This document shows, in pieces, positions 19,849-63,126 of a stretch of DNA of 64,000 nucleotides. Under the pieces are notes generated by a model. The model had not been told where the DNA came from and ran no database searches. It saw only the letters and a list, made by a program, of their open reading frames with translations. How positions within the stretch are numbered: position 1 is the stretch's first letter; the number at the start of each line of letters is the position of its first letter. The position numbers and the translations under genes are program-made. Source of the DNA: Octopus vulgaris (lineage: Eukaryota); the NCBI GenBank assembly GCA_951406725.2, contig OX597817.1, forward strand, positions 138,198,001-138,262,000, read 5' to 3'.

Positions 19849-21219
19849 TGACAGTGACTTCAAAGTTTCGACCAGCTAAGCCAGCATTGGAGTGTAATTT
19901 ATTTAAGTTCATCTTGACTTTATATCGCCTCTGTTAAATTTTAAATGTTCTTGAGTAACCTGAGTTCCGTTGGCTGGTAATTATGCGGTTTGGTTGGTTG
20001 TGGTGGCAAGGTGACATGGAGAATTTTTCATTGATTAAATATGGAGAAGTGCTAATTGTTAGAATTTATCCATGCATGCAGAGTTTTGTAATTAGGTGTG
20101 TATTTTTAGGTGTGTCATCTTCAGGTCATAGGGTTTCACAAGAGAATGTTGCTGGATTGTTATTGGTTTTATTTAAACATTAATTGGATATTTACCTTTT
20201 GCTTTGAGAATGTGAAAGTTAAATCTCAGGGTTCGGTCCAGCGACTTTCCAATTTAGGTGTGTTATTTGGTGTATCACCTTTTAAACGATTGATATTTAA
20301 GGGTTCAGAAAAAAAAACAAGAAGTCTATGGTAAGGCTTGTTTAGTCAGAAGGTTGGAAGTATTTATGGTTTTTCCTTTGATTCTATTCCTTCCTCTGAT
20401 GGTTATTAGTTAAGCATGTCACGGTGATATTGGTATGGAAAATGTGTTCATCAAATGTTTTAATGTTTACAAGAGTATGTAGGCAGGATTAAAAGTCGTC
20501 GCTCAGCATATTTGGAATCATTGTTCTGGAAAGTATTTGGTTACAATTTATATGTTTTGATGTACGTATGAAAGGAGGTGAAGTTTGTAGGCTGTTTTTT
20601 ATAATTATTTCTTATATTCGGTTTCATGTATATGAGTACATACTATATAAAATGTAGTATGTTTTTTTGTATTTATTAAAATATGAAAAAAGGTGAGTAT
20701 TATAAAAATTTCCGATTCAGGTTATTTCTCCTTGCATAAATATATGTGTGGCTTTTGTAAGATTTTGTTTGTTTTTTATGTTTGTGGTGATGTATTTTGT
20801 TTGTTTTTTCTTTTTTTTGTTTTTGTTTTTTTTGTTTGTTTTTTTTTAGGTGTTTGAAGTTGTTCTAGAAATTTTGTGGGAAAATTTGAGAACTCTTAGA
20901 TAATTTCTGCATAGCTTGTATAGTGTAGATTTGCAATATTAGTTTTGGAGATAGTTAATGAAGAAGATATATATATATATATATATATATATATATGGTG
21001 GAGAGGTTTCATATTTAGCCATTAGGAAAAATTCTTTTGGTTTAAAGTCTTTTAAAGTTTTTAAGACGTTGTGCTTGCATGAGGAGTCTAATTCGGAGTT
21101 TCGGTTCAGGGTTTGGTTCTTCAATGTAAGAATGTGGCAAGATTCGTTGGCACAGACAAATTTAAATGAATTACAGTCCGATGATGGCTTGGCTGGGTGA
21201 AACTTCAAAGTCACTGTCA
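19849..21219 (-). mobile_element. Degraded Penelope-like element with inverted hammerhead-bearing termini
   Basis: Inverted arms 19849-19910 and 21159-21219. The interior has only faint coding relics. Confidence 0.6.
21173..21217 (+). ncRNA. Degenerate type-I hammerhead ribozyme
   Basis: Stem I acagt/actgt, core CCGATGA (U4C), GAAA, stem III ACTT/AAGT, GTC cleavage triplet. Stem II is poorly paired. Confidence 0.6.
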
Positions 21220-22556
21220 ATACTATTCTTGTTAAAAGAAATGCGCATTTAAGTTTTTGGAAATAGCTAGACCATCGTCTCTGTAGAAACCCAATCCCGA
21301 TTTACATTAATCAAGCACGAATGACCCAACCAGATCTCAGCTTAACTCCATCAAAGCAGAGTATTTTGACACTAACTGGATCATTATGATTTCTGAGTCA
21401 TGCAAAATTCTTGTCTAAAAGCAATGTCTCTTTGGCTTGTTTGATGCCATAATTTAGTGACATTATTAATGTGCTTGCTAACTTTCTCAAGCTCATTCTT
21501 AACTGGATTTATTAACCTACATTTAGGGTTTGTGACGAAGTTCTCATAGTAGTCTATTAGTGTTACGCGTATTTTGTGTTTGGTTAAAGACTGCCCTTTC
21601 TTGGCTCCTCTTTTCGCTCTGTTACAAATTGAAGATGTTTGTTTAGATGTCTAGTCTGTTCTTGTTTCTTTGTTATAAATCATTATTCAGATATCAACAT
21701 GTCTGCTGCGCTTTTAGGCAAAAAATCAGAGGAAGCGGATATTGTTCAGTGGTAACAATGTACAAAGTGTTTCGCAACTAAAGTGATATTGAGTTATTAA
21801 CCAGAACATTTATACGTCTTGCCTTTCCGTAGCTACGAGAAATAAGCAATAAATCTTCTCCAAGTTTTACCTGTAACTGACCGGCGTTCGATCTTACAAC
21901 GCAGTCGTCAGGAATTCACTTGATGCATCTGGCTCTAATTAAATTCTATTAAAATTTTGGAGCTCACTACATTCGCAAGGTAGCCCTTATTTGTCTATAG
22001 CTTTTCCTGCAGTAGGCGTCCCTGCGTATTTTGCCTTGGTTATTGTATTACATACATCTATCGTATTATAATTCAGTTTTTTCTGTAAAGATATTCTAAA
22101 AGATAACTGTTGCTGTCCTCGATGTGAGCTTCACTATATAACACCAACAACGTTTATAAATGAACAACAACAACAACAAAAACAACAACAACAAGGAACT
22201 GTTCTGTTCTTTGCTTCTAATTAAATAGTGTTGATGGCAACAAGTGAAACCATAAATCTGGCTGATACACTTACTTGGAATCATGATCAATTACAAAAAG
22301 AATTCTATGCTTTTATTTGATTTCTATCTTGGCTTGAAATATAACAGAATGAATATGTTGTGTTTCTTAGATAAAGAAATGGAGCAAGAGGAAGAAGACG
22401 AGGAAGAAACTGAAGGAAGCTGCTTCGCATATGTTTGGGTGGTGTGTGTGTAAGAAAGGTGGGTGTGTGGATGGATAAAAGAGAACTAACGTAACTGAAG
22501 GGAGGTAGGTATATAATTAGACAGACTGGCGGAAGAGAGGCACAGAAATAGACAGA

Positions 22557-22930
22557 ATAGATAGATAGAGAGAGATAATTAGATAGACTGATAGATAGAT
22601 AGATAGATAGATAGATAGATAGATAGATAGATAGATAGACAGACAGACAGACAGACAGACAGACAGATAGATAGACAGACAGACAGACAGACAGACAGAC
22701 AGACAGACAGATAGATAGATAGATAGATAGATAGATAGATAGATAGATAGATAGATAGATAGATAGATAGATAGATAGATAGATAGATAGATGGATAGAT
22801 AAATAGATAGATAGATACATACATACATACATACATACATACATACATACACACATAATACATAGATGATGGATAGATAGATAGATAGATAGATAGATAG
22901 ATAGATAGATAGATAGATAGATAGATAGAT
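22557..22930. repeat. (GATA)n/(GACA)n/(CATA)n compound microsatellite
   Basis: Directly visible. Confidence 0.97.
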
Positions 22931-23569
22931 TAACAAATAAATACAACAGATAAATATAAATATTCATATTGTGTGTGTACGTGTGTGTATGTGTGTGTGT
23001 GTGTATTATACATACATAAAATGTAAAATTTAATAAGCACGAAGCTAAATTTATTTCTACTCTTGTACTTTAGTACAACTACTAACAGTATTACTAGTGC
23101 TTGTTTTACTTCTTTTAGTTCTTTCGCGTTCACCGCTTCTACGAGCCACAGATGTCCGACCACAGTTGTGTGCCGACGTGAGCGTAAGAGTTTGACATTT
23201 AAGAAGTTACGACAGAGTTTATTCAAATATGTTCCCATTCATTCTCTGTCGACTCTAACTAATTATTTCGGATCAAGCTGGTGCTGCCTATTCACAGATT
23301 TCCAGTTTTTCCAGTCAAATCTGTGCGCAGGTGCTTATCGTAATACCATGAGTGGATGTGACAACTTGTCCAAGTGGCCATTAAACTGAACTTCGATAGT
23401 CTTGCTACCTGGGAAGAGCCCCTCGATGGATGAAATGTAGAATGAACACACTTCCTGCACTCTCGACTGATACCAACGACTAGGATAAGTAGGGAACAAG
23501 CGTGTGCTGTTGGCATTCATTGCTTGTAGACTGCAGCCACTGATAATTCTACATCAACCTAAAAAATTG

Positions 23570-23778
23570 ATTTTTAGCACAAGGCCAGCAATTTCAGGGG
23601 AAGAGTGCTAGTCGATTACATCGACCCCAGTGTTCAACTGGTACTTATTTTATCTACCCTGAAAGGATGAAAGGCAAGTTGACCTCGGCGAAGTTTGAAC
23701 TCAGAACGTAGAGAATGGACGAAATGCCACCGAATATTTTGTCCAGCGTGTTAACGATTCTGCCAAGCCGCCGCCTTA
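23570..23778 (-). mobile_element. SINE family A copy
   Basis: Reverse-complement core and head (ccgccgcctt). Confidence 0.85.
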
Positions 23779-61849: not shown

Positions 61850-62170
61850 TCCTTGAAGTGTTTAAGTGTGAAATATTGCTTGTGTACGCAGGGAGAGGTT
61901 CCATCCCTAGTATATCGGATGTTATCTTTTGACTGTACATTTGGTTTTTTAGTGATGCAGAATTCACATTTGCTACCCCGTCCACAGTACTGTATTTTCT
62001 GGCCTTAGCTATGATATTCCATTTCATCTGGGGGTTACTTATTTTTCCTTCTTTCAATGTCCATATCATATTGGAGAGAGATGCTGAATGTCTTTTATTT
62101 TTGTCCCTGAATGACTCCAGGTGTTGTATGTATCTTTCCTTGAACGAGTTGCCCGTCACTCTTTGTTACT
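61850..62170 (-). pseudogene. Penelope-like GIY-YIG endonuclease C-terminal relic
   Basis: TGNSFKERYIQHLESFRDKNKRHSASLSNMIWTLKE..WNIIAKARKY matches the FK.RY..H..SF...LS..IW.LK pattern. Confidence 0.75.
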
Positions 62171-62539
62171 CTGTTGCGATCCATTATACAGGCCTTGTAT
62201 ACAACATGTATATATGTTGTTGAGAAGCAAAGTTCTTACCACACAGCCACACACACATATGTATATGTATATATATATATATATATATATATATATAAGT
62301 CAGTAAATGATGGGGTTGTGTTTTCCTCTCCTAAATATATATATATATATATATATGTATATATATATATATATATATATATATATATAAGTAAAAACAC
62401 TAATGGGTTAGGGTACCCTACAGACGTTTGAAACACGTGTTTTTTTATGAACAAATCAATTACATCATGAGAAATCAGTTTCCTTTAGGTTAATAAGAAT
62501 TTATATCGAATGTTTTACGTTTTAAATTTTAAACTTTCA

Positions 62540-62634
62540 TTCTCCTGAAGAAATCGTTTTTTTTCTTCTTTTTTTTATGTGTTATAATTTATTTATTCAT
62601 CAATAAAAAACGCGTCTGAAACAGCTGTAGTGAA
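62540..62634 (+). ncRNA. Degenerate type-I hammerhead with long stem II; decayed inverted copy at 62388-62490
   Basis: ttctc-CTGAAGA..cgtttttt/aaaaaacg..GAAA-CAGCTG-TA-gtgaa, with palindromic stem III ACAGCTGT. Confidence 0.65.
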
Positions 62635-63126
62635 CCTCAACCAATTTCTGTCTTTGCTCATTTTACATCATACCTGGAACCTCCTCTATGTTAGGACCTC
62701 GATCTTACACTGGATCGTGAAACTGAATGCCGAAGTACGTCTGTATGTGGTTTTTATATACACATCTATATTTACATTGATGAGTAGAATGAGTGTTCAT
62801 GTGCATGTGTGTGTATATACATGAATATGTGCGTGAATGTCTATATATACTGTTGAAATGCGGATATGCTATTCTCTACCCTAAATTGCCATATAACATA
62901 TAATAAATGACAAATAAGACTTTCACGAAAGGTTCGCGCAGGTTATCGAATAAATGATATGGAGATGCGGATGGTTGAGTTGTGTTCTGGTTGCGTAGTA
63001 ATGATACACAACACATGTGAACAATTAACAGGAACTTTATTCCCTGCACAAAATATTTTCCTTGTTGGTCTTGAATTAATAATACAAACAACAGAGCAAA
63101 CTCTGAGAAGACAATTCTGTAGATAT

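Follow-up and report, generated by a model that had tools for sequence, protein, structure and literature searches.

Inverted hammerhead-bearing pairs in an Octopus vulgaris contig as probable Penelope-like insertion footprints, with a candidate tRNA-headed short element

We analysed a 64,000-nucleotide stretch of animal DNA from Octopus vulgaris (contig OX597817.1, positions 138,198,001 to 138,262,000 of the forward strand; hereafter the window), which contains many microsatellites and short interspersed nuclear elements (SINEs), together with five inverted repeat pairs whose arms carry outward-facing hammerhead-like motifs. We label these pairs A (19.8-21.2 kb), B (35.5-36.8), C (50.3-50.9), D (54.3-54.9) and E (62.4-62.7). 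An earlier note on this DNA had described them as recurrent hammerhead cassettes and inferred a set of mostly non-coding ribozyme retroelements mobilised in trans. The most likely account, which we hold with good confidence, is that the five pairs are ordinary insertion footprints of Penelope-like elements (PLEs), and that C is a likely SINE using Penelope enzymes.

The five inverted pairs and their hammerhead motifs

All five pairs, placed by the earlier note at 19849/21219, 35534/36820, 50271/50868, 54290/54931 and 62388/62660, are real, and the local alignments of their arms score above every shuffle. Against the maximum of 200 shuffles, the scores were 106 versus 34 for A (arms 19832-19914/21154-21236), 492 versus 51 for B (35534-35783/36571-36820; 99.2% identical), 261 versus 50 for C (50297-50454/50702-50868), 320 versus 58 for D (about 54290-54538/54700-54931) and 75 versus 42 for E (about 62390-62490/62535-62660), the last pair having arms about 70% alike and not being picked up by blastn. 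We also found no sequence common to the five families, as the note had stated, with the best cross-family blastn match (E=0.003) being an AT-rich low-complexity stretch. The outward geometry rests on single copies in A, B, D and E.

Regarding orientation, a hammerhead-like motif lies on the minus strand at the left and on the plus strand at the right in 5/5 pairs, as proposed. The further proposal of a hammerhead in every arm held in part, with only 4/10 arms (both arms of B and the right arms of D and E) keeping CTGANGA and GAAA and the rest being decayed. Upon inspection of the core boxes, the left arm of D carries AAAA in the place of GAAA, the arms of A read CCAATGC (left) and CCGATGA (right), those of C read TTGATGA with a collapsed stem II (left) and GTGATGA (right), and both boxes are gone from the left arm of E. 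A strict hammerhead descriptor matched the two arms of B only (2 sites, versus 0 in 12/12 shuffled windows), and with one mismatch allowed it matched 3 sites, versus 0-2 in shuffled windows. With a looser scored descriptor, B reached 15.0, above all 20 shuffles (maximum 11.0), and the right arms of A (9.2) and D (8.7) fell within the shuffle range. Rfam reported no hammerhead family among the 150 of 272 window matches listed, nor in the C and D regions; the matches listed for the window and for these regions were miRNA families only, driven by microsatellites, and were set aside. Judged singly from its letters, only B is a convincing predicted ribozyme, and the other four needed outside evidence.

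Penelope-like coding remnants and the Hydra-clade comparison

PLE coding remnants were searched for with tblastn and with a frameshift-tolerant profile built from proteins retrieved by a GIY-YIG fragment of the window (62165-61830), which matched 277 proteins at E<=0.001, the best 150 being listed and 149 used. The atlas clusters closest to this fragment were mostly molluscan, and a word-based protein search with it was empty, a weak negative. Reverse-transcriptase (RT) and GIY-YIG remnants were found in and beside A, and none was found within B to E by the Hydra profile or Pfam.

The left arm of A, on the minus strand, is the 3' end of the long copy and holds its decayed hammerhead (CCAATGC...GAAA, with a 10-nt near-palindromic stem III). 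Upstream of it on the same strand lies a 1.1 kb spacer (19915..21028) of (TA)n and A-rich tracts, in which PLE coding signal was not detected, the frameshift-tolerant endonuclease profile giving 13.5 bits at 19910-20700 versus a null mean of 15.7; on these figures a second endonuclease or RT-thumb remnant, spotted there by eye, was rejected, and a separate profile search did not recover it either. Next comes the C-terminal remnant of a PLE GIY-YIG endonuclease (21029..21157, minus strand; tblastn E 1.7e-6; 32.6 bits versus a null maximum of 16.6; iE 0.005). Its start coincides with the inner border of the right arm, the point at which a truncated body would meet its own inverted copy. The right arm is the short inverted copy, on the plus strand, and its hammerhead matched the model described below with E 0.2 in the window and E 0.0054 in a 1.7 kb search. 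Just outside it are PLE RT remnants (21250..21650, minus strand), comprising an N-terminal block (21650-21435; iE 4.6e-10) and a YRDD block (21336-21250; iE 0.0016) separated by an internal deletion. By its sequence A is thus read as a truncated coding copy, and we infer that it inserted into an older PLE copy; PLEs have been reported to favour insertion at PLE copies (PMC6765202).

Two further remnants lie outside the pairs. A solo 5'-truncated PLE 3' end, overlooked by the earlier note, spans 26506..27181 on the minus strand and consists of an endonuclease remnant (27181-26990; 42.0 bits) and, about 440 nt downstream, a decayed Hydra-type hammerhead (about 26550-26506), which at 26540-26506 is the third-best model match in the window (E 0.074); no inverted partner was seen. 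A GIY-YIG remnant adjoins E (61822..62207, minus strand; 128.7 bits), and no hammerhead was found behind it.

For comparison, a metagenome contig scan confirmed 395 relatives, of which the best 80 (L001-L080) formed the comparison set. Among the related open reading frames (ORFs), DKT is present in 38/48, DKG in 0 and a CxC..CP linker in 48/48, and the full-length relatives show RWK-like, DKT and CxCX5C linker marks with CxxC/CxH around E and N, as in the Hydra clade of PLEs, which is reported to carry RWK, DKT and CxCX5C and to insert into (TA)n (PMC8557442). An initial Neptune-type label for the PLE proteins was dropped for Hydra after this motif check (DKT, no DKG). The clade of the window remnants is suggested by similarity only, because they span just parts of the protein. 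No relative of protein P0090 was found in the PDB.

A Hydra-type hammerhead pattern, fixed after inspection of the first matches, is present in 65/80 loci. It lies 66-525 nt after the ORF end in 38/46 loci whose flank reaches 350 nt or more, against 1 match in the antisense control. Its stems covary, with 167 two-sided changes versus 42.0 +/- 6.3 in shuffles (0/500 reaching the observed number; kinship uncorrected), and 92.9% of cells pair in 47 of 59 distinct motifs versus 26-48% in slid controls. We also observe that these hammerheads form a distinct subtype, with GAAAC...GT and an 8-10 nt palindromic stem III, and that the base of stem II is often U-U or another mismatch (22/47 unpaired).

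When the Hydra hammerhead model was run on the window, the two arms of B ranked first (24.7 bits, E 6e-4), and 7/16 matches at E<=10 fell inside the arms of the earlier note; matches in the left arm of D and the right arms of E, D and C were weak or partial (E 0.37-8.2). B runs from its left arm (minus strand; intact Hydra-type hammerhead at 35636-35542) through an interior (35784..36570) with a pyrimidine tract on the plus strand and a 104-nt direct duplication (36278-36380/36435-36538) to its right arm (plus strand; intact Hydra-type hammerhead at 36718-36812, with predicted cleavage after GUA). Its arm identity marks B as a young copy, and both predicted ribozymes are intact. No PLE coding signal was found over its 1.3 kb, the longest ATG ORF being 60 aa, in which it is unlike the Hydra clade, and it probably represents either a non-autonomous derivative of a Hydra-type element or a copy that has captured DNA. 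Non-autonomous PLE derivatives have been published (bioRxiv 10.64898/2026.07.22.740005, PMC8557442, PMC6685494).

In E, the left arm (62390..62490, minus strand) is heavily decayed, and the right arm (62535..62660, plus strand) has both boxes intact, a perfect palindromic stem III ACAGCTGT and a T-expanded stem II, its Hydra-model match being weak (E 4.9). In D, the left arm continues through a one-sided extension of about 40 nt (54289-54250) into (TA)n, giving a span of 54250..54538 on the minus strand, and the right arm (54700..54931, plus strand) holds a minimal hammerhead that keeps both boxes, has an extra base ahead of stem II and forms that stem from GTCAC/GTGAC. CPLSGN-like matches in D were rejected, being antisense and at chance level. 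The plus strand of the D interior (54590-54660) is a GC-richer stretch containing CAAAATGGCG, a YY1-like word, followed by a CA microsatellite into the right arm, and this order loosely resembles the head, microsatellite and module layout described below for C.

Window remnants match Hydra-clade proteins, and the 8-10 nt palindromic stem III of that clade recurs in A, B and E. Its (TA)n targets recur in part: (TA)5+ runs lie 4 nt from the left end of B and 0 nt from that of E, with 0.41% of window positions as background. At D, (TA)n is reached via the extension, and A and C lie 79 nt and 96 nt away, so that the Hydra target feature is absent there. A, B and E look like Hydra-clade products, and E appears to be an old two-arm stub resembling the comparison locus L014. 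Unlike the Hydra clade, C and D have a minimal stem III of 4-6 nt with an extra base, which points to another PLE clade. D and E may be short stubs of coding PLEs.

Two comparison loci, unrelated to each other, show the same outward geometry: in L012 a coding body stands between outward-facing inverted 185-nt arms, and L014 is a 270-bp two-arm stub between TA runs. Inverted repeats of at least 40 nt were listed in 3/80 Hydra loci, and L009 is not a clean cassette. L012 and L014 indicate that such geometry arises routinely from PLEs, coding or not. Dual minimal hammerheads on opposite strands, 100-700 bp apart, have been described in Schistosoma mansoni (PMC4209133), and inverted PLE copies with tails are likewise published (PMC8557442, PMC3846280, PMC8969392). 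The claim of a special cassette was overstated, the outward inverted pair being a known PLE insertion product.

The tRNA-like head and the wider family of C

The general inverted-pair pattern is known and ordinary, and what is new is C. Its long copy, on the minus strand, reads in order a tRNA-like head from 50700, (TAA)n, a hammerhead module, two 9-nt repeats and a 30-nt tail, about 434 nt in the window copy with the microsatellite included. The 76-nt head (50625..50700) has an A box from position 8 and a B box from position 53, and keeps tRNA positions in register (T8, A14, G17-G18, T33, G53-T54-T55-C56-G57-A58, C61). The (TAA)n linker (50430..50624) connects the head to the hammerhead-bearing 3' module, which forms the left arm (50297..50454), and the one-sided tail (50267..50296) belongs to the long copy only. 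On the plus strand, the right arm (50702..50868) is an inverted 5'-truncated copy without the tail that abuts the first base of the head, and its predicted cleavage site lies between 50810 and 50811. Pairs of A and B boxes occur 3 times in the window versus 0 in 200 shuffled windows, and runs of four T number 0 on the sense strand of C versus 2 on the antisense strand. This head, the most novel feature of the locus, had been overlooked by the earlier note. We additionally observe a second B-box-like word, GGTTCGAAAT, at 50750-50770 in the 3' module upstream of the hammerhead, which is possibly a remnant of another small-RNA head.

To follow C beyond the window, all contigs of four sequencing runs, chosen through B, were aligned to 50610-50960 at 80% likeness. 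Matching contigs numbered 27,803, 28,799 and 18,228 in three organisms, which we take to be octopus-like; a further small run, presumed to be RNA, gave 747. That 20 runs of four organisms share 0.38-0.61 of the words of B was not used as evidence. At position 50783, where the core is broken, the alternative letter, C, accounts for 88%, 79% and 91% of depth (32, 34 and 27 contigs), indicating that the core defects of C are decay of the window copies. The loose-end consensuses read CTGATGA, one extra A, a GGCTG/CAGCC stem II, GAAA and then the palindrome ACGT, in agreement with the minimal PLE hammerhead that Cervera and de la Pena described, which has an extra base before stem II, G10.1-C11.1 and a palindromic stem III (PMC4209133). 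Exact C patterns had no match in viral, prokaryote-genome or metagenome contigs, and a word-based protein search with two C translations was empty, a weak negative.

Loose ends with mixed flanks accumulate in two places: 93 and 119 contigs end at the head start (50700/50701), and 148+395, 159+518 and 140+430 contigs end at 50863/50868, where a third 9-mer repeat may in part account for the double pile. In run X4, the loose end behind 50868 resembles the one-sided tail (10 contigs, agreement 0.6). The consensus behind the head start opens with the head's own first bases reversed, resembling the junction palindromes of Adineta pseudo-long terminal repeats (pLTRs) (PMC3846280). Among the 15 of 205 joints listed, on which all joint figures rest, 8 connect the head start to 6 different arm starts, from 50802 to 50849, another 4 have their break within the head, 2 link opposite strands via the microsatellite and the remaining one is a difference in the stem II loop. 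The 2 opposite-strand joints and the X4 loose end (runs X1, X3 and X4) show the head, (TAA)n and the arm in the same sense, and a go-back joint from 50867 to 50740 in X3 indicates that tandem C copies exist. Three of the listed head-to-arm junctions have their arm starts (50809, 50812 and 50814) close to the predicted cleavage site at 50811, a hint, in numbers too small for a claim, that ribozyme-cut 3' fragments template some inverted C arms. Joints and piles together indicate that the inner ends of C vary and its outer ends are fixed.

These variable arm starts count against a reading of the pairs as miniature inverted-repeat transposable elements (MITEs) with long terminal inverted repeats (TIRs) and hammerhead-like motifs arising by chance, which we regard as the least credible account. 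Such elements would have inverted arms and TA-rich flanks, also a Tc1/mariner target, as found here; TTAA flanks A on both sides, and the single motif scores of A, D and E are weak. However, fixed symmetric TIRs are not seen in C or D, C being variable and asymmetric with its one-sided tail and D asymmetric; B has intact, model-matching ribozymes; a PLE endonuclease remnant lies inside A; and no common TIR motif or target-site duplication was found, the longest flanking repeats being 2-6 nt and inconsistent and the TTAA of A sitting within the arm alignment. The MITE reading is already contradicted for A, B and C. The earlier note's preference for PLE-type retro-insertions over DNA-transposon MITEs is borne out by the coding remnants of A, the Hydra match of B and, in C, the variable inner ends, one-sided tail and intact majority core.

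An alternative for the C head is that it is a separate SINE or captured host DNA, all five pairs then being plain 5'-truncated stubs of coding PLEs. Capture of unrelated DNA between pLTRs has been published for Adineta Penelope elements (PMC3846280), A is demonstrably a truncated coding copy, E resembles L014, and the 3'-module bins of C are deeper than its head bins (about 5-5.7 million versus 3.3 million in X1), as if some arms lacked the head; depth is not copy number and its dips follow the copy's own mismatches, so that no truncation gradient was read from it. We consider this account improbable, given that head-to-arm joints recur at other loci with many junctions, that head, (TAA)n and arm are linked in X1, X3 and X4, and that loose ends pile up at the head start, whose first G directly adjoins the inverted arm.

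Even less probable, in our view, is that C is a conventional SINE mobilised by long interspersed nuclear elements (LINEs), with a 3' part once derived from a PLE and the pairs being nearby independent insertions. LINEs are abundant in the window (for example, the RVT_1 ORF at 31447-29117), and the common 3' end of the C family, a short 9-nt tandem repeat, also suits LINE-mobilised SINEs and speaks against our preferred reading. Yet only about one base separates the head from the inverted copy, and both 3' ends face outward with a tail on one only, which is a PLE signature. LINE priming is not known to duplicate the 3' end.

We read C as a likely RNA polymerase III (Pol III) SINE mobilised by PLE proteins. 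We lean, with somewhat better than even confidence, towards C representing a class of short retroelement not described before, namely a Pol III SINE with a tRNA-like head that lives as a parasite of PLEs instead of LINEs, carries their minimal hammerhead and is a major repeat in at least three related species.

Several observations weigh against the reading of the five pairs as PLE footprints with C as a PLE-dependent SINE. No target-site duplication was found at any of the five pairs, and the hammerheads of D and E, taken alone, are not significant by score or model search. In single-strand folding no arm beats its own shuffles (z -1.32 to +1.05), as is expected for hammerheads with a short stem III. 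The left hammerhead of A lies about 1.13 kb behind the endonuclease remnant, farther than in all 38 comparison loci, and remnant and hammerhead may thus not form one unit; captured spacers of 0.9-1.5 kb have been published for Adineta Pen1 (PMC3846280). ARAGORN (default) and Rfam did not call the head of C a tRNA, and no autonomous element with its 3' module was found in weak searches. Each of its joints is supported by 1-3 contigs in a given run, the shorter side measuring 19-45 letters, and a joint that recurs between runs may reflect one shared orthologous insertion. Finally, the family is known from contig sequence alone.

Proposed insertion mechanism, known systems and other repeats

Under the preferred PLE account, an RT/GIY-YIG protein would nick AT-rich or (TA)n DNA on both strands, and reverse transcription would start from a pair of closely spaced sites downstream of the hammerhead. 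Every insertion would then have two outward 3' ends, one of which retains a 30-40 nt tail, and the two complementary DNAs would be joined head to head at variable truncation points; the hammerhead would survive in both arms because of its location near the 3' end. A PLE protein has been reported to cut both strands of AT-rich DNA, with two internal start sites defining the tail, and hammerhead mutants still insert (PMC11167929). A would have entered an older RT remnant as a truncated coding copy, B would be a young copy without coding sequence and E a two-arm stub, and C and D would carry the minimal-type hammerhead of other PLE clades. C was presumably moved by a non-Hydra PLE as a Pol III transcript, its 3' module likely supplying the protein-recognition and priming signals; pLTR sequences are reported to be enough for mobilisation in trans (PMC3846280). 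Insertion probably does not require cleavage, and as a cut at 50810/50811 would remove the priming region, the long copy is more likely to have been templated by uncut RNA. The proposal of mostly non-coding elements mobilised in trans thus finds family-level support for C only, and fails for A, a truncated coding element.

We compared the pairs with known systems. As in the inverted-pLTR insertions of endonuclease-containing (EN+) PLEs (Arkhipova 2013 PMC3846280; Craig 2021 PMC8557442; Cervera and de la Pena 2014 PMC4209133), there is a body with an adjacent inverted 5'-truncated copy and a head-to-head junction, a 30-40 nt tail on one end and a hammerhead near the 3' end. The variable 5'-truncated inverted copy joined head to head is observed for C; the one-end tail for C (50296-50267) and D (about 40 nt); and the sense-strand type I hammerhead near the 3' end is intact in B and in the family majority of C, being decayed or weak alone in A, D and E. 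We noted no difference from these insertions for A, B, D and E, and C adds the tRNA-like Pol III head as a fixed 5' end. Animal non-LTR retrozymes (LTR, long terminal repeat; Cervera 2020 PMC7229834; Li 2026 bioRxiv 10.64898/2026.07.22.740005) are likewise non-coding, carry a type I hammerhead and have been proposed as PLE pLTR derivatives. Unlike the pairs here, they are tandem repeats processed to circles, and the available text of these sources reports no tRNA head. The term retrozyme, suggested earlier, fits the dispersed inverted pairs poorly, as their ends are not at the cleavage site.

C has the tRNA-SINE features of a head with A and B boxes and a short, non-coding, dispersed, high-copy element with a fixed 5' end. 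Like C, the Schistosoma SMalpha/Sjalpha repeats combine a Pol III-type promoter and a type I hammerhead in a short non-coding repeat, but they form tandem arrays, their canonical hammerhead releases monomers and the promoter is left at the 3' end; the accessible parts of these reports do not describe a PLE partner or inverted tailed insertions (PMC6765202, PMC8490949). tRNA SINEs and TRIMp3 elements (Helenus, Ajax, Cassandra) also fuse a small-RNA Pol III promoter to the cis signals of an autonomous element, their partners being LINEs or LTR elements, whereas the insertion marks of C point to a PLE (PMC10886601). SINEs are described as LINE dependants and Pol III-headed parasites are known for LTR elements, and our searches gave no such case for PLEs. 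In the papers searched, no element combined a tRNA-like head with the insertion marks of a PLE, Repbase, Dfam, the O. vulgaris consensus library and most subscription papers lying outside the scope of that search. The 2026 O. vulgaris annotation lists 190 Penelope-like families with 6.83% coverage, and hammerheads are unmentioned in the supplement as available (PMC13282606); its consensus library, Repbase, Dfam or subscription papers may hold the C family. If our reading of C is true, a non-coding, high-copy PLE passenger would define the minimal cis signals at about 170 nt plus the tail, and C would offer thousands of junctions for studying the origin of inverted arms and the role of the hammerhead cut in transposition. 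Automatic annotation would split such copies or mislabel them as SINE, MITE or Penelope fragments.

Additional repeats were observed across the window. A diverged solo piece of the C 3' end (45783-45816; 88% over 34 nt) adjoins a Tc1/mariner transposase-like fragment (46039-45818), judged by eye, and further tRNA-type SINE heads with A and B boxes lie at 32140-32200 (plus strand) and about 7072 (minus strand), unlike the C head beyond the A box. What is likely a sixth PLE-type pair (12696-12765/12794-12860) occupies 12696-12905; its outer ends both border (TA)n, and one side is extended by about 45 nt. The final 45 nt of this pair are similar to the end and extension of D, and a minus-strand hammerhead-like motif at 12824 would face inward, its score of 9.0 being within the shuffle range. 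Nearby, a near-perfect inverted repeat of about 40 bp (12558-12655) has TAAGGGTTA-like ends and runs into (TA)n. A non-LTR retrotransposon occupies 29117-32070 on the minus strand, with a 777-aa open frame (RVT_1 E 1.2e-27), a weak zf-RVT match and an upstream frame. Finally, one abundant SINE-like family, spread over 2738-63359, accounts for most of the long inverted matches in the window and is partly tandem, for example at 42616-43037 and 44485-45093.

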